From: Ruditapes philippinarum
Lineage: Eukaryota
Direction of reading: 5' to 3'
Assembly (NCBI RefSeq): GCF_026571515.1
Contig: NW_026864113.1
Location: 1 to 64,000 of the forward strand
DNA length: 64,000 bases
Part shown: piece by piece, positions 7,921-64,000 of the stretch
Layout of the letters: each line of letters begins with the position of its first letter
Position numbering within the stretch: the first letter of the stretch is position 1
The notes under the pieces: generated by a model
What the model saw: the letters and a program-made list of their open reading frames with translations, nothing else
What the model was told of the DNA's origin: nothing
Databases searched by the model: none
Translations under genes and position numbers: made by a program

Positions 7921-7980
7921 TTGTTGGGTATTTGTAAGCGCCTGTTAAAAGCAAAATATTACAACCCGTTGTTATTATTG

Positions 7981-8345
7981 ATGGTGGTACGGTGGTAAAA
8001 GCGCGATGGTACGATGGTGAAAACGCGATGGCACGATGGCGAAAATGCGATTGTACGATGGTGAAAACGCGATGGTACTATGATGAAAACACAATGATTC
8101 GATGGTGAAAACGCGATGACACGATGGTGAAAACGCGATGGTACTATGATGAAAACACGATGGTACGATGGTAGAAACACGATCGTACGATGGTGAAAGC
8201 GCGATGGTACGATGGTGAAAGCGTGATGGTACGATGATGGATTCGCAATGGTACGATGGTGAAAACACAATGGCACGATGGTGAAAACGCGATGGTACGA
8301 TAGTGAAAGCGCGATGGTACGATGGTGAAAACACAATGGTAAAAC
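7981..8345. repeat. Minisatellite, ~16 copies of a 22-bp unit (ACGATGGTGAAAACGCGATGGT)
   Basis: Periodicity is directly visible. It explains the spurious ORFs 7959-8336 and 7975-8334. Confidence 0.95.
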
Positions 8346-9249
8346 GAGCCTACATCTCCATCATTTTTGCCGATAAGGACATGCTTTCGGGATTATTGTT
8401 TTCCCTATTTAATAGAACACCAATTTCATTATATATGTATTATGTCTAATATAGATGATATTTTATCTCTAAGTAGTATGTGTCAACCTTCATTACGCGT
8501 TAAATACAGTGAGTGTTGTGTAATTTTTTAAAGTCAAAAATGCGTTCAATATATAGTATATATTTTTTTACTGGATAATATTAATTATTTTATCTCCTAT
8601 TTTCTAAGCCTTTTATAACACATATGTGTGACAGAAACTGTAGGAAAAAAATAACCATTGGTGGTTTGTTTGCCTTTTACAAACTAGACTAGCTTGTCTG
8701 TCGAATGATCCGGTTAATAACCGATTATTTTTCTTAGAGTTGACCGGTTCATGACATTTTAAGTCACTGTTTTTTCTTCTTAAAAAGTGTTTATTAATCT
8801 ATTCTAATCAGCTTAACACTTCAGTAAACAGCTTAAAAGGCTCATTGTGTGTGTTGAGTCTTGTATTTTACTATTTTAGTTATAAATACTCTCGTACCGT
8901 CCATAAACAGGCTCAATCAAACCGAACCTTCAACTTTTTCAATTTTGTCGTTTAATCTAAGAATCCATTTTTCCCTATTTAAACAGTTTACTAGTGTCAT
9001 TGATTGCATAACAAAATATTCACTCGCTTGTTTGTTTGTTCGTTTGTTTGGGTTTCACGTCGACACTGTAACATGAACAGCCATACCGTGCCGAACAAAC
9101 TAATAAGTAGGCCTTAAATAAGTTGGTGTGCAAGTCAACAGAGGAACACCTTCTTCGACATTTGACGAAAAAATATATTTTGAGCATATTTTATGACGGC
9201 CTATCGGTGTAATTTCCTTTGGTTTGAAGAATTTGCCGCCATGACTTGG

Positions 9250-51669: not shown

Positions 51670-52093
51670 AAGGTTTGTTTTCAACTTGGGTGATTCCAAT
51701 ATTCCTACGTGAATACTGTATAATCACCCGTTGGATATGATGTCTGCTTCTTAAATGTGTATTGTGGCGTCTTATCTGTGACATGCAGAACTCATAACCT
51801 CAGATTCCCTTTCAACATTCCATTTTACTTCATTCCACCCATTGTTTTTTCAGTCAAGGTACACATTTTTTTTACTTTTCACCGAATGGCAGTAACGTGT
51901 CACACTGGAAGTTCCTTGTTTAACGCCGTATGAAAACATCTTCAAAACCTGGTGTGTCTTAATTCAAAATATCACCATTTTCATATTGAAATGTAGAATT
52001 CTGCTTAAGCCGATGTCAGGGGGCGCGGACGGTAACCTGTACTTTTCAGTTCCGTCAAAGAACAGGTATAGTCAAACAGAGCCTGCAACATTT
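51670..52093 (+). mobile_element. Family A copy, interrupted; resumes at 62,738-62,790
   Basis: Ends GAGCCTGCAACATTT and continues ATTTTCAATTTTGTCG...AGGGATTCCG after the TIR element, restoring the family consensus. Confidence 0.85.
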
Positions 52094-52160
52094 CGTCGCC
52101 CTATTCTAAAAATGGTGTATCTACAATTTCCTCTTTTTTGGGAAAAAGGGGTTAAAGGTT

Positions 52161-52546
52161 TGTCATGTGGTCGATATTCGTGTTTTTGAATATCGTTTTC
52201 ATGTATCATTTTGTCCTTGTATTTGTATATATATCTCTTGTATTTGTCTGTTTACAGTCCGATATACAATCCATTATCCCATATCATCCCTATATCATTC
52301 CATTTCATCATCTCATTATAACAACTAATTTCTCATATTTCATTTTGACATTATTTGCATGCCGGGCCTCAGTTTTTACAAACTTCCCGGAAAATCCACC
52401 TCACGCATGCGCACTTTGATATAAATATTTCCTTGGTTTGCGCCAGAAATTGTTGTCTTATTTATTTATTTATTTATCAAGGCGTATGTTTATGTCCTTA
52501 CAGGCATAAACAGACCATTCATACATTAGAAAAGGACCATACGACA
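52161..52546 (+). repeat. 5' LTR (386 bp)
   Basis: TGTCATGTGG...CATACGACA, near-identical to 60,536-60,923. TATAAATA at 52,420-27. Confidence 0.97.
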
Positions 52547-52547
52547 T

Positions 52548-52562
52548 TGGTGGCCAGTGTGG
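52548..52562 (+). promoter_or_regulatory. Primer-binding site
   Basis: TGGTGGCCAGTGTGG starts one base after the LTR. It is complementary to a tRNA ending ...CUGGCCACCA (Ile-like is an inference). Confidence 0.75.
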
Positions 52563-54809
52563 ATTTTTATGTTTGGATTGGTATTTTTCATGGTACGAAT
52601 TTATTTGGGACGAAACAACGAACACAGAACAGTGACGTAGGGAATTCCCAACTACAGCCAATCAGAACGGCTTTTATATTTTTGGTTTACTTCCGGTGAC
52701 CGGGTACTCCCGAGGAATTCCTTCAAAACAAACAAAAGTTTCAACTAGTTATTTTTCTATTTCTTTTAAAGAGCTCAAACATTTAATTAATTAAAGGTAC
52801 TTATTCTTATTTATATATCAACGTTGGATCATTCACTTCTTCGGACCATTTAGACTACAGCAATATATTTCTGGACTTTGAACATTTGTAAACAAACAGT
52901 GTAATTTGTAAATTCTTTAAATTCAGTGTTTACATATTTTTGATAAGTGTCTTTTTCAATTTAATTAGTATCAAGTGCCATTTTATTGTTATATTGTAAA
53001 ATGTAGATCTGGGTTGATTTTTTCATTTATCTATATTGAGTGGTGTAAAATCTTGATCAAGATCTACATGTGAAAATCAATTTTTGTTTTGAACCAGAGA
53101 TATACATGTATATTATTATTTGATTTTGTATATTTTAGGTTGAATTCCACAAAGCCTTGTACTTCAGGCTTCTGTAATATTGATTTTATCCTGTTGCTGG
53201 CTTTTTGAAGATTGACACAGACATGTAGACACAGCATTTAACTATCAGGTGGTTGGTGAGCTAACACTCTGTCTCTTTTATCTTTCATCTTGGTCTGAAT
53301 AACTAGTGTATTACACCTGTCCCTATTTGAAGTTAATTCCACCCAGTCTGGTATTGTCCATTTACTGTAATAAATCCTATATTACCCCAGATATTATATA
53401 TCCAACAGCTGAATTATTTCAAATCCTATATAAGCAGGATTTGCTTGAGTTTTGCCTGAAGTAAGCATGTAGATTGTATAGTTTAGCACTTATAATAATT
53501 TTTATTATATAGGAACAGATCATTGTAGTTAACTTGTGAGTAAATATAAATAAAGTATACAAGTAGGTTTGAAATATTTATTCTTTGGTTAGAATAAATT
53601 GTTCAACCCGGGCAGTTAAAATCAATTATATTTAAAATTCTGTAAACTTAAAATAGCATTTCATTTAAAATACTGCGACGGTATCATGTAGCCGGTAAAA
53701 AGATTTGAAGTGAAATATTTATTCTTTAATTAGAATAAATTGTTCATTTTTAAATCTTGTTATTTTTATACACAGTTTGTGAGAACCGACACTAAACTTC
53801 TTCTTCATTTTCGAATAGTGAAGTGTTTTGTGCAAATGGTAATATATTTTCTTATATAGAATTATTCTATATTTACAAGAATTTAACATATATACAAATA
53901 GCAAATCAATTGTTGCTATTGTATCACAGTTGAAAAATTGATAATTTGGGTTCTACTCATTTAGTTATTATAGAAAGTCTGTTTATAGGCATATTATTTT
54001 ACTTTATGAACTGAAAATTAAACGTTTTGCGTTGAAATAATTGTCTAAATCAGAAGACAGAAAATTTACACATTTATTTATTCCGGTTAGCTTTGTGTGT
54101 ACTTGTATTAAGTTGAGTCCGTGCCTGCAAGGAAATTTATAGATAATCTATATACATGTAAGTTAGGTCTTTGGGATTTTTTTTCTGATATTGTATAGAG
54201 TACTGGACTGAACATTGTTTGCAATACAGAATTCCTGCATATAATTTCACAAGCCTGTGTGTCTCTTGCAATTACCATAAATTAGTTGAAATTTATATAT
54301 TATAGCAAGTAACTGAACAAGTGTCTGTGCATTTCACAATATAATTGTATAGACTTGTTACCTGTAACTTGACAATCTTAGGTGTTTGTTATTTATTTAG
54401 TAAGTTAAGCACTGAATATTATTCAGTTGAATTTAATACTGCTTTATAATAGAGACTGAATATCAGTGTTATTAGATCTATTGTTTTACAAACTTTGATC
54501 TAATTTACTGTATCTGGTACATATATTATTCAGGTGACCTTGAAATTGTGTGTAATGTATGGTGCACTGTGTGGGCCATAATTTGAATAAAGTTGATTGA
54601 TTATTTTCAAGTCTTTGTGTTTTTCTCTCGAAATAAAATTGTTTTATTTCTATTGTTTGTTTTTTATTACATCTATATAGACCTAAACTGGTTACTGATG
54701 TAAATCATTTTTTTTAGTGTATGGTGTATAATTTGGGCCATTTGAAATCCTGAATTTTAAGTCACGTTTTTTTTTTTTGGTCCAATCCATTTTTTTTTTT
54801 TTTCTCATC

Positions 54810-55970
54810 ATGGCGGATGGTACAACTCAGTCCTTAGACTATTCAGATGCAGATCTGGAATTTTTTGCTAGACAGTTACAAAAATCTGGTAAGTTTCAAG
54901 TTAATGCAATGGCAAGTACACCTCATACAGTACACTCAAGTCATACATTTAATGTTACACCTACTCCTATACGGGAACATATCAGCAGAACAAGTACACA
55001 TCAGGTTCACTTTCCTCCACCTATTTATAGCATTCCTCCACCCATGCCTAACCCTCAACCATACTTGTCTTTTGTGACAAATAGGGACTTGGTACATGCC
55101 CGTATCCCTGAGTTACCTTCTTTTTCAGGAGATGGGAAATACAACTCGTCAATGTTCGAGATATGGCGCTATGATGTCAATTGTGTCATTGATGAGGGTA
55201 ATTATCCACCATTTATTATCAGGGAGGCCATTCGTAAATCTTTGAAAGGCAGTGCCAGAGGTGTTCTTTTGCATTTAGGTGAAAATGCCACTGTTCCTGA
55301 GATCTTGAATGAGTTAGATGGCATTTATGGTAATGTTCATTCAACTGAAAGGTTGAAGGAACAGTTTTATAATGAACAGCAGAGGGTGGATGAGTCTGTT
55401 GCTGACTATAGTTTGCGTCTGGAGAGGTTGCTCAGCAGGATACCATGCAATCTTTATAGGATGTCCAAGGATGAGATGCTGCGGGGTAGGTTGTGGTCAG
55501 GCCTTCGTGATATAGAGCTTAAGAATGCCTCTCGATTTCTTTTTCAGAAGGACCTCAACTTCAATACTCTTCGAAAAGAGTTGAGAGCCATTGAGGAAGA
55601 CTTACGCTTGTCTCGGTTAGCCACTTCTCTCCCTCTTCCACCCAAGCAGGCAGCCCCTCAGGCCAATGTTTCTTTACCTTCTACTCCTAATGAGTCTGTT
55701 CCTGCACAGCAGTGTGTCACTACTGTAGATAGTAGACTTCTCCAGGAAATAAGGGCCCTTTCTAAGCAGATGGAAGGCATGGAGTCCAGGCTGTCTAGTA
55801 TGGAGAAGGAACTCAAGGGCTTGAAACAAGAGAGATCTTCCACTCAGGATGTCAAAGCCTCTGCCAGTCCTTTAAAACTACAGTCGACCTCCATCGCAGG
55901 GCAGATGAGAGGTCATACTTCCCCTTCTAATGACCCTGCTTTCTACATTTCCTCTAGTTGGCTCTTCTAA
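54810..55970 (+). CDS. gag: Gag, PNMA/Ma-like capsid (assembled ORF runs on into the start of pol)
   Basis: ATG at 54,810. LPSFSGD...FEIWRYDV...IRKSLKGSA...LDGIYG...QRVDESVADYSLRLE. C-terminal coiled coil; no CCHC knuckle seen. Confidence 0.88.
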   Translation: MADGTTQSLDYSDADLEFFARQLQKSGKFQVNAMASTPHTVHSSHTFNVTPTPIREHISRTSTHQVHFPPPIYSIPPPMPNPQPYLSFVTNRDLVHARIPELPSFSGDGKYNSSMFEIWRYDVNCVIDEGNYPPFIIREAIRKSLKGSARGVLLHLGENATVPEILNELDGIYGNVHSTERLKEQFYNEQQRVDESVADYSLRLERLLSRIPCNLYRMSKDEMLRGRLWSGLRDIELKNASRFLFQKDLNFNTLRKELRAIEEDLRLSRLATSLPLPPKQAAPQANVSLPSTPNESVPAQQCVTTVDSRLLQEIRALSKQMEGMESRLSSMEKELKGLKQERSSTQDVKASASPLKLQSTSIAGQMRGHTSPSNDPAFYISSSWLF

Positions 55971-58900
55971 TGAATCTGAAATTCTTATAAATGGTACTTC
56001 TACTATAGCTTTGATAGATACTGGCTCTATGATTTCATCTATTGGAATTTCATTCTTCAAATCTTTAAAGCCTCAGCCTGTCATGTCACAGTTGTCAGAT
56101 TTTATGTTGGATATTTCTTCTGCTAATGGTTCTAAGGTACCATATCTTGGATATTCAGTTCTTGATATTACTTTTCCTTCTCTTTCATCACAATCTTTTT
56201 CAGCTCCTATTCTGATTGTTCCAGACACAGAGTACTCCAGCAGAGTTCCTTTGATAATAGGCACCCAACATACTGAATGTTTTTGAAGTCATCAAGAACA
56301 GAATCAACATCATCTCCACTTTCAGACATCATATCTTCCTTGTCTGACATTTGTCACCAAACCTGTTACTCTTCTTTCATCATCAGACTGTCATTGTGAA
56401 GCCTTTTGAAACAACAACACTTGAGGGAAAGGTGAGACATATTGGCAACACATGTAATCTGGTGTTACAGAGTCTACTGATTCTCTTATGTTGAATGTGT
56501 CCCTAGATTGGTTAAATTTACAACCTGGTACTTCTTTTTGCAGGGTTCCAGTACGTGTTTGTAAACTTGACTGCTAGAGCTATTACCATTCATCCAAAGA
56601 ATGACTCTTTGTAACTTACATGATGTGTCTGTTGTTCGCACCATTGATCCTTCAGAGGGCGTTGCTGATAAATCCCACAATTCAGACAAGTCTCTTGATG
56701 ACCTTGGTATTTCTATTCCCACTGAAACTTTTAACTTCTGAACAGCAGGTTAAGGCAACTTCCTTCTTCAATCAGTGGAAACATATTTTCTCCTCTGGGC
56801 CTACTGATCTTGGTTCTACTGACTTGGTCGAACATGAAATCAATCTGTCTGATCCCACACCCTTTAAAGACCCTTATCGCCGAATACCACCAGGGATGTT
56901 TGAGGAGGTACGTGAGCATTTACGAGACATGATTTCCGCAGGAGCGATCCGTGAGTCCAAGAGTCCTTTTTCTCTAATGTTGTGTTTAGTAAAGAAAGAA
57001 GGACGGGTCTTTTTGCGTTTTTGTATCGATTACGCGGAAACTGTGACAATCAGGGGATGTCTTATGCCCCCTTCCTCGCATCGACGAAAACTAAGATTCT
57101 CTCATAGGTTCCACTATTTTCTCATAAGCTCGACCTACGCTCAGGTTACTGGGCAGGTCCCCAGTCAAAGAATCTGATAAGCAAAAGACTGCCTTTAGTG
57201 TTGGGCCTCTCCGGATTCTATGAGTGCAACAGGAATGGCTTTTGGTCTTACCAATGCCCTGCAACGTTTCAGCGTCTGATGGAGCGTTGTATGGGCGAAC
57301 TTCACCTTTGTGACTGCTTTTGATTTATCTTGATGACATTATCATCTTTCTGATTCTATTGGATATCATTTCCGTCGCCTTCAGTCTATTTCTTTCAACG
57401 TCTTGAGATGCACAATCTTAATACTAAAGGGTCCAAGTGTGAATTCTTTAGAAGCCGCAAGTCCAGTATTTGGGGTCAATTGTTAGTGCTGATGGTGTGA
57501 AGACGATCCTGAGAAGATTGAAGCACTCAAGACATATCCTGTCCTAAATTGCCTTAAGGAGTTGCGTAGCTTTTTAGGTTTTCTCAGGTTATTAACAGGA
57601 GGTTCATTAAAGACTACGCCACAGGATCGCCAAACCTTTGAATGACCTTCTTATTGTATTCTCCACTGCAAAAGTTTCTTTCTAAAGAAATCTAAAGTTC
57701 CTTTCAATGTTGGGGTGCAGATCAGCAGAATCTTTTGTTCTTTGATAGATAAACTTTCTTCTCCTCTCAGTCTTAGCTTTTGGCCTGACTAACAATAAAC
57801 CATTCATTCTTAATAGTTGATTGGCAGTACTAGCGTTTTTGGGAGCGGGTCTTTACCCAGGTTTGGGTGCTGGATGGTAAGGAGCCATGTTATTTCCTAT
57901 GCCCAGTAGGGGTTTGGAGAGCAGGAGAAAGACATATCTGCTCACAAACAGATTCTTGGGCTCTTTAAGTGGTCCTGTCTGTGAATAAGTTCATGATTAC
58001 TCTATGGTATTCTGTGGAAAGGTTAGACAGACAATAACCCAACTTACTATGTGTTTTCAATCTGCCGAAGCTTGGATGCACCAGTTCACAGGTGGTTATC
58101 CCCTTGTCTGCCTTAGTCGACATCAACTTGCGGTAGCAGAGCTGGTAAAGAGAACATCGACGGGGGCCCGGATAACCCCTGTCTAGAATTCTTCGCTTCT
58201 TCCTCTCCTGATTCTAACATTCTCCTTTCAAGATGCTGTAAGGCCTCCTTTCTCTGTTTTACATAAATCTGAAGGGTCCAGGTCAACTTCCAGCCGGGGT
58301 AGAATGTATTTCTTTTTAACCAAATGTTCTTTCTCTTAATCCAGAGACGAGGATCGAAGTCGGGGAAGCAGCCTTAAGTTTATTGATTGGAAGAAGGAGC
58401 AGGCAAGATGATCCAACACTTTCCGTTTAGTTAACTCTTTGAAATTGGTCATAGGTTAACTGAAGCGCAAAAGTCCAGCCATGAAAGGCAAGGTTCGGAT
58501 CGGGTTTCCTGGAAGGAAATGGAGCAACTTTAACTTTAAGGATTCAATTCTTACCGTAAAGGTACTTCAAATGGTTATCGCTGTTACTCAGCTTGTTCTC
58601 GCCTGAACATATGCTTGATTTCAGCTTCTCAGGGTTTGGCATGATGAAGGCAGGGGACACTCAAGGTTGTACAGAACGATTTCCTTGGTTCCGTTCACGT
58701 TTTCCCCTTTTGGCCTCAGTTAGAGGCAGTATATCGAACACAGGGGTTCGAAACTGCCCCCAGATGTTATCCGGAGAAAGTCATTTGGATGGCTGCTAAG
58801 CGTTAAATCCTATTCAGTCGAGTTATCCAATGGAAATTGTCTGTATGGATTTTCTTTCTCTGGAGATGTCTCGGGGTGGTTATGAAAACATCTTGATCAT

Positions 58901-60059
58901 TACTGATATTCATCGTTTTGCTCAGGCTATCCCTGCAAGAACCAAACTGCACATACTACCGCTAACTTCTCTTTGAAAATTTCGTTTGTCACTATGGTTT
59001 TCTAGTCGGTTCCATAGTGATCAAGAGCGAAAATTTTGAAAGTGAAGTTATCCGGGGTTGTGCAAGTGGCCAATATTACCAGGACTACTCGTATCCATCC
59101 ACAGGGTAATGGGATGCCTGAGCGGCTTTAACGAAAACCCTCTTGAAAGTTGGGGACCCTAGAAGATGACAAAGAAGGTCAATTGAAGTCCCATGTTCAC
59201 GCTCTTGTCCATGCCTATTAACTCTACTCCCCATTCTTCTACTGGTTATTCTCCCCACTTCCTCATGTTTGGTCGCCACCCTAGGCTTGCCATCGATGCG
59301 TTTCTTGGCATCGAACCAGACAAATCTCCTGTCAAGGACCATTCTTACGTCTCCGGTCTCCAGAACAGACTCAAATTTGCATATTCTGTTGCACTCCGAG
59401 AGGCCAAGAAACAAGGCAAGAAACATAAAAGGTACTATGACCTCCGTGTGAGAGAAGCGGAATTGAAGCCCGGGGATCGAGTACTGGTCCGAAATGTAGG
59501 TGTTAGGGGAAAATCCAAACTTGCCGATAGATGGAGAGAGGATGTTTACACCATTTCTTAGCCAGCCCACCTCTGGAATTCCCATCTATGAGGTGAAGAA
59601 GGAGAACAGCAAGGAAAGGTCCAGGGTTTTGCACAGGAACCTTTTACTTCCTTTATGGGATGCCCTTTGTGTAAAACAACTGAGTCTTATACAAGCCAGC
59701 TTCCTCTGACTTACATTCGGATCAGAACTCTTTCTCCAATCCCTCCTCTGATATTTCCCATTACAGCTCCGTTAGATTCAAATCCCTCACTTACATCAAG
59801 TCCATCAAATGTTTCACAAAGCAATTCTTCCACAATACATGATTCTAACAATTGTATGTCAACTTCTTTTACAGGAACATCAAACAGCAAACAAGATGCC
59901 ACGTCAACAAATAAAACATCTTATTCTATTACAGGTTCTAAATATGTCATTCCTGCACTGAGAAATCCATCTAAGGAGAACAACAACAATTTACAGAGGC
60001 AGAAGCGTACTAGAAAGAAACCCGGATGGATGCTAAATGACAACTGGAAATTAGATTAA
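55872..60059 (+). pseudogene. pol: Pol (protease, RT, RNase H, integrase), heavily frameshifted as assembled
   Basis: ALIDTGSMIS; HEINLSDPTPFKDPYRRIPP; LRFCIDY; IYLDDII (~57,325); GGYENILIITD; HSDQ; MFGRHPRLAID; LKPGDRVLVRN...KLADRW. Confidence 0.92.
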
Positions 60060-60521
60060 TGCTTTTCTTTATAGTCTAGGTGTGTTTCAACTTTGAAGCT
60101 AGGCGTTGCTTAGTACCTGATGTGTTTCGTTTTATGTTTTATACCATGTACCATATATTTTACCTTGATAATTTATAAATGTACTTTACAGTACTTTAGA
60201 AATAAAGGATTTATTGTTGAGAGTGCACCTCTTCAATGAATTCACAGTTCTACTGATAAATTAAAATTTTGTTTCCGCGTGACATATATTTTTTCGCGAT
60301 TCGCGGCATACGGTATTTTTTGTGGAACATGGCTTGAGTTTAAGGTATTTTGCCCGGGTATTATATATTTACTCACAGGTTGTAATTGCCTTAAGTATTT
60401 AGATTTAGTTATGTAGTACCCCTAGTAGTTTAGTTACTTTATGGTCTAAGCTTACTACTTGCAATGTCTGATTCAAGCTCTTCCTCTTTAATATTTTATG
60501 AATGTCGGGGCGACATTCCCC

Positions 60522-60535
60522 AAAGTGAGGAAGTA
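60522..60535 (+). promoter_or_regulatory. Polypurine tract
   Basis: AAAGTGAGGAAGTA lies immediately before the 3' LTR. Confidence 0.75.
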
Positions 60536-60923
60536 TGTCATGTGGTCGATATTCGTGTTTTTGAATATCGTTTTCATGTATCATTTTGTCCTTGTATTTG
60601 TATATATATCTCTTGTATTTGTCTGTTTACAGTCCGATATACAATCCATTATCCATATCATCCCTATATCATCGTCCATTTCATCATCTCATTATAACAA
60701 ACTAATTTCTCATATTTCATTTTGACATTATTTGCATGCCGGGCCTCAGTTTTTACAAACTTCCCGGAAAATCCACCTCACGCATGCGCACTTTGATATA
60801 AATATTTCCTTGGTTTGCGCCAGAAATTGTTGTCTTATTTATTTATTTATTTATCAAGGCGTATGTTTATGTCCTTACAGGCATAAACAGACCATTCATA
60901 CATTAGAAAAGGACCATACGACA
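60536..60923 (+). repeat. 3' LTR (388 bp)
   Basis: Differs from the 5' LTR by four small indels as far as I can see. Confidence 0.97.
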
Positions 60924-60927
60924 GGTT

Positions 60928-62372
60928 CAAGACTTTGTAACTTTTATTAAATAACTCCTAACAGTGTGGACTTCTGGATTGGTATTATTTATGTCAACAT
61001 GTGATGAAAGCACTTTATTATATACCCTTATAATTTGCAGTGATTGAAAAAAAAAATATTTGGAGATAGACCAAAAATCTTTATTTTTAGATAAAAACAT
61101 TACTCTAAAAATGAGTTTGCGGAGATATGACAAAGTAAGGCTGAAATTGTAAATACTTTTTGAGTTAGCATTTTTAAGAGTAATAAATTTACTATAGAAT
61201 ATTAGTAGATTTTTATATTCTAAAGAACATTTTAAGCCAGAGTGGTTGAACCGCTGACACTGAATCACTTTATCTTTGTAAATTACTATGTCAAAGTGTA
61301 AATTCATTCACGTGATCTCTAACTTGGGCCTTTCTCGATAATGACAATATATAGTGTGCCATAAAAAAAGGAAAACAAAATTTCACAAAATTTTTAATCA
61401 ATGAACTTGCTAAAACAAACTGACATATTTTGTACCATTATGAAAAATGAAATCATTGTAACCATCTCTAATATTTTAAATGAATACATATCCTAATTAT
61501 ATTAACAAGAACACCTTTTTTAATTCACACAATTAAAGTCAATACCACATGCATTTATACCGCCTCCCAAAGTCTCAAGTATTGTTGGTGGTTTAATATC
61601 AGCGTATGAAAAAATATCTGCTCAAGTTCTTAACAATCTTTCAAGATTGCAAAATCGTCGTTTTCAAGATTTTACATCCAGTGAATTTTGCGATCTCCCA
61701 TTTTGGTGTTTGTCGCACAACGTAGATACTGGACATTCTAATAATATCGTCCATGAACAGGCTAAATCAAACCGAGCCGGCAACATTTTAGATCATGCCG
61801 TATTGTGCTTTAAGAATTCTGCTATCATCTAATAAATATAATCATTGATGACCCGGAGAACACTGAAACTCGCATGCAAACTTAAAATCTATGTTTGGAC
61901 AAGACAGTGGTATTCCAATCCTATTGGAATGTTAAATATCTAAATCTTTTTTGAATATTTTAAGACTTGAAACAATGATTTATCTGATGACAAGTCAAAA
62001 TTTCCCCACAGACTTGATGTTGTTGATATAAAATTCCATAGTTTTGTGGAAGTTCTGCTAACTGCAGTCACAAGTTCTAAGAGACAACATTTCTGTAAGG
62101 ACAACGTCTGATAATATAAGTAAGTCTGACCTGAAATGGACAAAATAATAACATTAACAATTAAACAACAACAATGTTCGATACTCCAAATAGTTCCAAA
62201 TAGTTCATACGAATATCCGAATATGGCTATCCGAAATTATGTGATTGTCAAATTTTGAGAAATATATATAAAAGAATCATAATACGATGAAAAAAATACT
62301 AATGCAAAATATTAATTCACTTATAAAACGTATAAAAGCTAAAATATATTACTTACATTCTTCAGAAATCAT
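60928..62372 (-). pseudogene. F-box / leucine-rich-repeat (FBXL-like) pseudogene inside the TIR element
   Basis: After an acceptor (TTTCAG|62,130): SDLLILSDVVLTEMLS / LELVTAVSRTSTKLWNFISTTSSLWGNFDLS, an F-box pattern with one frameshift. LRR-like LENDDFAILKDC*ELEQI (~61,660-61,610) and LSYLRKLIFR. Candidate first exon ATGATTTCTGAAGAAT|GTAAGT at 62,372-62,357. Confidence 0.6.
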
Positions 62373-64000
62373 TTTTTAACTGTTACTTTCCTAGTTAGCT
62401 GGCTGATTTAGATACTATTGTTGTTGTTATCACTGGAGTTAGAACAATTATATTGTCAGGCCCCTTCAGGTCACATGACATATAATTTTCAATTTGATTG
62501 GCTGGCACGAAAGATTAGCCTAAAGTGTTACATGGGTGGGAGATACGACGAAAAAAGGTTAACAGCAAAGCTTTCCATTGGACATAGAACAAAATACAGA
62601 CGCTATATCTACAAAAGTATGACGTAAATCTTTACATGTTTTGTTTTGAAGATAGAACAAACTAATACTAAAATAATTGTGCAGTTATCTCATTTTTGGT
62701 AAAAATGGAGTTAGGACATTTTTAGAATAAGGCGACGATTTTCAATTTTGTCGTTTTGAGCGTTTTAAGGGATTCCGTTTTTCTTTACTTTCCTCTTCTT
62801 ATTGTGTATGTTTAAATGTTTGTGGCATTCCAGGGATAAAATATCAACATAACAAACAACGAAAAATCACATACATGTATATGAGTTTTTACATAAACCC
62901 AGTGACCCCAAGGTGGACCAATGTTGACCCCAGGGGCATGATTAATATCAGTTTTGCAGTGGTGAATGTCGTTTGTTGCCGTGTTAAAATAACGTGTAGA
63001 CAACAGTATTATAATATTACTGAACAAGCAAATCGGTGATGTTTTTGTCTTTATATATTGAGTTCATGAGTTCATTTTTTTGTTTGTTGCTTTTTTTTTT
63101 GGTCAAGTAAAACCTACCTATACAATCAATAGGAAGCCTACATTACGTTAAATACATTGTAAAAGTATATTTTCCTCAATTTAATTGAAGACAGAAGAAT
63201 ATTTTAGAGGCCAAGTTAAGTACAGTATATTTGAATTAATGATAATTGAACATATTGAGTCATTCACACAATCGTTTTTATTACCACCACAATAACTAAA
63301 CTAGGAGTTTTTATATAAATTTTACGATGAGAAAAGTATAGTAAGCAGATTTATTTCGAAATAATCCTGCAGGATTTTCTTAGAGAAGCCGTGAGGAAAT
63401 GTTTCAATTAGTGGGTAATCCTGTCAAAATAAGTTTATTTGATTGAATGTTCTTAGTTTATCTTTCCTAAACCTTTCCTAAATAAGATAACTGTATTTTA
63501 TATTAGATATATTTTTTGCTCTCAGTTATATCACGTTTGCCCTTGATATTATGGAACAACTTATATTGTGTGCATTTTCCCTTCATTATTTCGTAATGAA
63601 ACTAATCATGTATTAACAACAATCCATACCAATATCTGTTTAATACGTTAATACTTTATAGCTTTTGGAAATTCTTTCGATAATTTTAAATGATTTAATA
63701 TAACCTATTGTATTTTCAACAGAAACTTCTAAGAAGTAATAAGCCACCATGGTATATTGCTAATATTTTACTTTTACTTTACAGGCGTTGTTATTATACC
63801 CACGTAAGGTAAGTAGGTAAAGAAGTAGGTAAAGAAGAATAGATAAACCCAAAGAGGAAAATATGTTAGAATTTAGGTAATTGAAAAGACTCCGTCCATA
63901 AACAGATCAAAAGCAAGTCTGCAACAGTCCCCGTCTTGTGCGTTCTTTCCGAATTATGTTCTTCTCTATCTACTCAAATTAAGTATCAGCATTACAAACA

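Follow-up and report, generated by a model that had tools for sequence, protein, structure and literature searches.

A transposon remnant in Ruditapes philippinarum very probably derives from a Sola1-type lineage with an F-box/LRR gene ahead of its transposase gene

This study focused on a transposon copy at positions 52,094 to 62,737 of a 64,000-nucleotide stretch of Ruditapes philippinarum DNA (the window; assembly GCF_026571515.1, contig NW_026864113.1, positions 1 to 64,000, forward strand). The copy is bounded by terminal inverted repeats (TIRs), is interrupted by a retrotransposon, and holds a broken gene for a protein with an F-box and leucine-rich repeats (LRRs). It is very probably a dead, transposase-less derivative of a Sola1-type DNA transposon lineage in which an F-box/LRR gene stands upstream of the transposase gene. 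The window copy itself is ordinary debris; the finding is the lineage behind it, many independent families of which keep an intact, constrained F-box/LRR gene within their TIRs.

An open relative was recovered at G000:C9819 by a protein search in which stops were read as X. A similar TIR opens it, and across the 5' end, intron and gene it shares 76% identity with the window element. It carries a 233-amino-acid (aa) F-box/LRR open reading frame (ORF) followed, one base past the stop, by a truncated transposase ORF. The genome was also searched separately with the F-box protein and the transposase protein. An F-box match lay less than 3 kb upstream and on the same strand for all of the top 13 transposase matches and for 21 of the top 40, a count that is a lower bound, 28 F-box coordinates having been used. 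Profile scans covered 72 loci, of which 69 were from this genome (picked from match lists, hence non-random), one was viral and two were metagenomic. F-box and transposase occurred together at 42 loci, a deubiquitinase-like domain and transposase at 12, and a PHD (plant homeodomain)-like ORF and transposase at three, while the transposase stood alone at eight, the F-box at four, and neither was found at three; two accessory modules were found together at none of the 72. Complete F-box elements represent at least five families, measure 4.2-5.4 kb, and have CGT-type TIRs and 4-bp target site duplications (TSDs), with copies 96-99% alike within families. The 3' part of the window element is 72-82% identical to L123, L082 and L134, and because it matches these sister 3' ends the window element can be read as 5' end, F-box gene and 3' end with the transposase deleted; a transposase hidden Markov model (HMM) found no remnant in it. 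The complete paired relatives thus support the proposal, made in the first-pass annotation, of a deletion derivative from a Sola1-like family with an accessory F-box gene.

The intact F-box/LRR ORFs are about 235 aa long, and all nine matched PF12937 (F-box-like) above the cut-off, with Pfam LRR_4 matching below cut-off only. The predicted model (236 aa; mean predicted local distance difference test score, pLDDT, 96.9) combined the helices of an F-box with a short solenoid of LRRs, and its top PDB matches were FBXL2, SKP2 and FBXL17. Across nine families the proteins are 30-59% identical, and identity at the three codon positions was 48/65/34%. In six families the F-box gene gave pN 0.43 and pS 0.80, against 0.41 and 0.82 for the transposase core, and a codon model returned an omega of 0.03, of which only the direction is safe because synonymous sites are saturated. 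The comparison of non-synonymous and synonymous change that the first-pass annotation had called for, run here across intact families, therefore pointed to constraint, and by these sequence measures the F-box gene is as constrained as the transposase. Columns of the F-box motif are among the best kept, and in the LRR region S116, L118, F120 and C135 are conserved in at least 90% of 77 sequences. A profile search returned 84 clusters at E<=1e-30, most of about 230 aa and some being long LRR proteins; 30 were looked up and five bore organism names (two Tegillarca granosa, one Mytilus coruscus, two Owenia fusiformis). Two database models, P0025 (Tegillarca) and P0045 (Mytilus coruscus), continue into the N-terminus of a transposase. 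A fusion of F-box and transposase is not supported, the ORFs lying in different frames or being separated by stops, and the fused models are probably annotation joins. Metagenome locus L131 is a decayed 4274-bp element with TIRs, a TSD and both genes, and viral contigs gave one weak LRR-type match only.

The window element and its immediate surroundings comprise the following features.

52090-52093, plus strand: left copy of the 4-bp TSD, ATTT
52094-52114, plus strand: TIR, at the 3' end of the element relative to the F-box gene
52094-52160, minus strand: final 67 bp of the non-autonomous element, separated from the remainder by the Gypsy insertion
52161-60923, plus strand: nested Gypsy-type long terminal repeat (LTR) retrotransposon, LTRs at 52161-52546 and 60536-60923, GGTT duplicated
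60928-61440, minus strand: non-coding 3' part of the element, homologous to sister-element 3' ends behind the transposase
61440-62130, minus strand: exon 2 of the broken F-box/LRR gene, lower end approximate
61741-61826, plus strand: inserted family A repeat fragment within the F-box/LRR gene, 86 bp, in most copies
62131-62356, minus strand: predicted GT..AG intron that interrupts the predicted AT|G start codon, conserved in relatives
62472-62501, minus strand: predicted promoter, CCAAT box and E-box with a spacing of 19 bp
62717-62737, minus strand: TIR, 5' end of the element
62738-62741, plus strand: right copy of the TSD, ATTT

The outline of the element had been drawn correctly in the first-pass annotation. 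Its 21-bp TIRs match at 20 of 21 bases, ATTT is present on both flanks, and the body, given earlier as about 1.9 kb, measures 1877 bp once the nested Gypsy element is removed in silico. The insertion splits a family A repeat cleanly, as had been claimed, because the two uninterrupted copies in the window, at about 37.9 and 42.7 kb, each carry a single ATTT at the insertion point. The Gypsy element starts 67 bp inside the left end, has LTRs that are 99% identical, a gag-like ORF (54732-55970) with PNMA and Retrotrans_gag matches, and a pol region in pieces. It was missing from all three other element copies checked, and is a later insertion unrelated to the element. Its LTRs differ by three gaps and zero substitutions, indicating a young insertion, and the many pieces of pol possibly reflect assembly indel errors. 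Elsewhere, the window contains a large tandem segmental repeat (about 12800-41000) that recurs every 8.3-8.4 kb or so, with as much as 99% identity between copies, and a minisatellite (7941-8402) with at least 14 units of 22 bp.

A decayed F-box/LRR gene had been recognised on the minus strand, and homology to intact relatives bore this out. The window gene shares 76% DNA identity with an intact copy, its F-box, translated with breaks bridged by X, is 59% identical to an intact relative, and an HMM built from the family matched at 62089-61892 (E=1.2e-9) and 61674-61471 (E=2.6e-4). Exon 2 is damaged by an 11-bp deletion near 62084 and by several stops and frameshifts. The splice sites proposed earlier (donor 62357|62356, acceptor 62131|62130) held up and are also conserved among relatives. 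The ATG at 62372, which had been taken as the start in a micro-exon, was rejected, as it is out of the F-box frame and opens only 16 codons in an intact relative; the likely start codon is an AT|G interrupted by the intron. AT precedes the nearest GTAAGT donor and G follows the acceptor in the F-box frame, which would give a split ATG, in six families (window/L060, L070, L071, L074, L076 and L102); L082, L111 and L115 also fit this arrangement. In L077, L085, L088, L106 and L131 an ATG lies within exon 2, and in L075 the donor is ambiguous.

In nine of 17 representatives a CCAAT box and an E-box lie upstream, 18-24 bp apart and usually 19 bp, as against less than 2% for shuffled sequences. This pair, conserved at the 19-bp spacing, is the part of the earlier list of upstream motifs that stood; TGACGT was present in only three of 12 F-box-bearing representatives. 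Since two elements with a PHD-like ORF have the pair too, it is likely to be the main promoter of the element. In seven of eight intact families the distance from the F-box stop to the transposase ATG is between -14 and +9 nt.

The family that shares the window's TIRs is non-autonomous. Exact matches to the 21-bp TIR number 96 across the 1.4-Gb assembly, as against 0 for the reversed control; counted by hand they fall at about 61 loci, possibly including haplotype duplicates. Both TIRs are present at 44 of the 57 loci retrieved, and 37 of these 44 have a 4-bp TSD; copy length is about 1.87 or 2.29 kb, with a median identity of 96% among the 42 copies aligned. Of 45 copies, 32 could be scored for the 11-bp deletion and 29 of them have it, and the family A insertion lies in the F-box gene of 36 of the 45. 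The F-box segment is thus shared by other copies with these TIRs and is not a one-off insertion. No transposase remnant was found in the family copies examined. Loci with an unpaired TIR, taken with as much as 10 kb of sequence, were truncated copies, lay at the end of a contig or showed a mismatched TIR; among them there was no longer copy with the same TIRs and a transposase. Since the F-box gene is broken in every copy examined (longest open stretch, 116 aa), the master copy was already dead when the family spread. A 2.29-kb subfamily (L021-L036, e.g. G000:C3:136227-138522) was amplified after a gain of about 410 bp whose sequence resembles the 3' fragment of a long interspersed nuclear element (LINE). 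A second deletion-derivative family of 3.3-4.3 kb (L102, L103, L114 and L116-L121) retains a frameshifted F-box gene and only the C-terminus of the transposase.

Assignment to Sola1 was made on the autonomous relatives, the window copy having no transposase. Their transposases are 750-900 aa long, Pfam gives DUF7869 only, and a PDB sequence search with the transposase profile found no match. Three aspartates (D302, D381 and D424) are invariant in 60 sequences, as is a Cys/His cluster, and in the predicted model they lie on strand 1, strand 4 and the next helix of an RNase H topology, the best structure matches being TnsB, IstA and integrases. We take this motif set to be that of Sola1, in which, as here, a single ORF encodes a DDD transposase with an RNase H fold. 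Homologues occur in molluscs, Hydra, an insect and a fish, where they are unnamed or 'uncharacterized'. A TTAA target duplication is typical of Sola3, Kolobok and piggyBac, and none of the 37 TSDs was TTAA; Zisupton/KDZ elements make 8-bp TSDs, whereas those here are 4 bp, and six full transposase ORFs of F-box elements gave no KDZ-associated Pfam match. The terminal 36 bp are identical at 24 positions to the TIR of Bombyx Sola1_NA given in PMC3845634 (a hand count without shuffle control). An AWWT or AWDT target is a Sola1 hallmark there; of the AWWT duplication expected in the first-pass annotation, the 4-bp length held, and the target preference shows a similar but looser tendency (ANNT in 29 of 37; AWDT on either strand in 24 of 37, hand count; strict AWWT in 15 of 37). 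The autonomous relatives also have 4-bp TSDs, and the 4.2-5.4 kb of the complete elements is close to the mean of 5445 bp given for curated bivalve Sola1 in PMC10294476. By TIR, TSD and DDD features the lineage may be filed as Sola1-type. In two further Sola1-type pairs (L094/L108 and L095/L098) the CGA-type TIRs are perfect and an accessory module was not recognised; L095 is only 2.98 kb long.

The position ahead of the transposase is an exchangeable slot, which alternates among F-box/LRR, a PHD-like finger and a deubiquitinase-like domain. In a quick transposase tree (49 rows, loci with fewer than 180 aligned residues omitted) the F-box elements occupy two well separated clades. The F-boxes of L077 and L088 are 59% identical and grouped at 99% support, while their transposases fall in different, well supported clades; L077/L083 compared with L088 thus look like an F-box module swap between transposase clades. 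Clade-mates L099, L100 and L109 have, instead of the F-box gene, a C4HC3 ORF of about 107 aa that ends 2-7 nt before the transposase ATG and whose PHD matches are weak, below cut-off. In a third clade the transposase N-terminus contains or is preceded by a Herpes_teg_N (PF04843) domain, which passed the Pfam cut-off in three ORFs; it has Q-C and DPH motifs, taken here to be catalytic in the herpesvirus-type deubiquitinase. One literature search found no paper joining a Herpes_teg_N or tegument deubiquitinase-like domain with a transposase. The elements concerned are:

PHD-like ORFs: L099:3901-4224; L100:5346-5675 (minus strand); L109
Herpes_teg_N-like elements: L090-L093, L096, L097, L101, L107, L136-L138, L140 (e.g. 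G000:C14537, C2674, C9993)

Several observations weigh against this picture of the window element and its lineage. No direct autonomous parent (more than 90% identical) was found in genome searches, the closest relative being truncated and 76-78% identical to the window element. Pfam F-box had no match in the window copy, in single frames or bridged by X, so that of the HMM check proposed earlier only the family model gave a match, and 86 bp of what had been read as LRR region (61741-61826) is the inserted, non-coding family A fragment. In the eighth intact family a gap of 61 nt separates the F-box and transposase genes. Three runs guessed to be RNA, none with a holder on record as RNA, were compared with the related element L074; the predicted intron joint was found in none of the three, and contigs, which cover L074 from TIR to TIR and begin at the TIR, read through the intron. 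These contigs may be read-through or DNA. One RNA-like run also had a 487-nt GT-AG joint (L074:3131/3619), six times deeper than the unspliced part and not conserved in other families, which would remove the LRRs.

The F-box gene may encode an adaptor of a Skp1-cullin-F-box (SCF) ubiquitin ligase and thereby eliminate a host protein that keeps the element in check, a reading that we moderately favour on sequence and predicted structure. A single promoter (CCAAT-N19-E-box) would drive the element, and excision of the intron would join the AT|G start of the F-box gene. The transcript would carry two genes, with the ATG near the F-box stop permitting termination-reinitiation for the transposase. 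The F-box would bind Skp1, the short LRR solenoid would capture the substrate, and the substrate would be a host silencing or chromatin factor. The window family lost gene function before spreading and was mobilised in trans. We rank a host restriction factor first, since the F-box module has travelled between distant transposases and its place can be taken by other ubiquitin and chromatin modules. A wider scheme is offered tentatively, and could well prove wrong: the slot would hold ubiquitin or chromatin effectors (F-box E3 adaptor, herpes-type deubiquitinase or PHD reader), translated in a coupled manner with the transposase from one spliced mRNA, the F-box version, an SCF adaptor, would act like viral F-box proteins in destroying a host silencing factor, and the system would be spread across bivalves and other lophotrochozoans.

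The F-box protein might instead target its own transposase, limiting its dose or stripping it from DNA after strand transfer. Tight stop-start coupling would yield both proteins together, and DDE strand-transfer complexes often need active disassembly, as in Mu with ClpX. This is unlikely, given that the F-boxes of L077 and L088 remain so similar despite transposases of different clades, and that close relatives function with a PHD-like finger or nothing in the slot. Less probable still is a decoy role, in which the protein would bind Skp1 or a chromatin partner but degrade nothing, blunting host SCF or tethering the transposase; the very short LRR region (the whole protein has 236 aa) and the well kept F-box columns would suit it, yet the four LRR columns named above are strongly conserved too. 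A Pack-type capture, the other option of the first-pass annotation, in which a host F-box gene was acquired once and carried neutrally, would fit the broken gene of the window family and is very improbable: the slot and the F-box gene recur, under constraint, across families whose intact ORFs are diverged to synonymous saturation, the position ahead of the transposase is fixed, no free-standing donor gene was found, and of the four F-box-only loci two start with the family TIR, one is a short match and one (L113) is frameshifted.

An SCF adaptor that removes a host factor would place this lineage beside several known systems. Like the FBXL adaptors SKP2, FBXL2 and FBXL17, the protein is predicted to have an N-terminal F-box followed by an LRR solenoid, but it is only about 235 aa long, 11-20% identical to them, and transposon-borne. 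Plant VANDAL elements carry VANC, an accessory anti-silencing gene. Fungal DNA transposons with TET/JBP accessory genes are described in PMC12730594; as in these and VANDAL, an extra gene thought to counter host control stands beside the transposase, whereas the module here comes from the ubiquitin system and three modules alternate in the slot. An F-box-containing isoform exists in Zisupton (Bohne et al. 2012, as cited in PMC12062965), also a DNA transposon bearing an F-box domain, but of another superfamily, with the F-box in an isoform of a large protein rather than in a stand-alone F-box/LRR ORF, and with TSDs unlike the 4 bp here. In SART1, UAAUG stop-start coupling was demonstrated experimentally (PMC3894237). 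The second ORF there starts at or over the first stop, as with TAATG in L088 and the close spacing in seven of eight families, but SART1 is a retrotransposon with proven coupling, while here the element is a DNA transposon and the coupling is predicted.

The first-pass annotation knew of no F-box cargo described for Sola elements, and no account of an F-box gene in Sola1 elements was found in the literature, of which Bao 2009, Bohne 2012 and Repbase Reports could hold one. Sola1 descriptions give a transposase ORF only, as far as the accessible text of PMC3845634 and PMC10294476 goes; the latter curates eight bivalve Sola1 families with F-box unmentioned in that text, and 12 of its 33 supplements held no match. 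The F-box is likewise unmentioned in the accessible parts of PMC12730594, PMC5751038 and bioRxiv 2021.09.26.461848. A 2025 study of fusions between F-box genes and transposable elements reported no evidence that transposons have captured F-box domains (PMC12062965), and the F-box sequence described in a telomeric retrotransposon amounts to short gene fragments only (PMC13534243).

Few animal DNA transposons carry a gene dedicated to counter-defence. Models of an 'F-box domain-containing protein' in mollusc and annelid annotations are explained as likely transposon genes. Being small and, in prediction, well folded, the 235-aa adaptor is simple to express, and through its substrate it would identify the host factor holding these elements in check.

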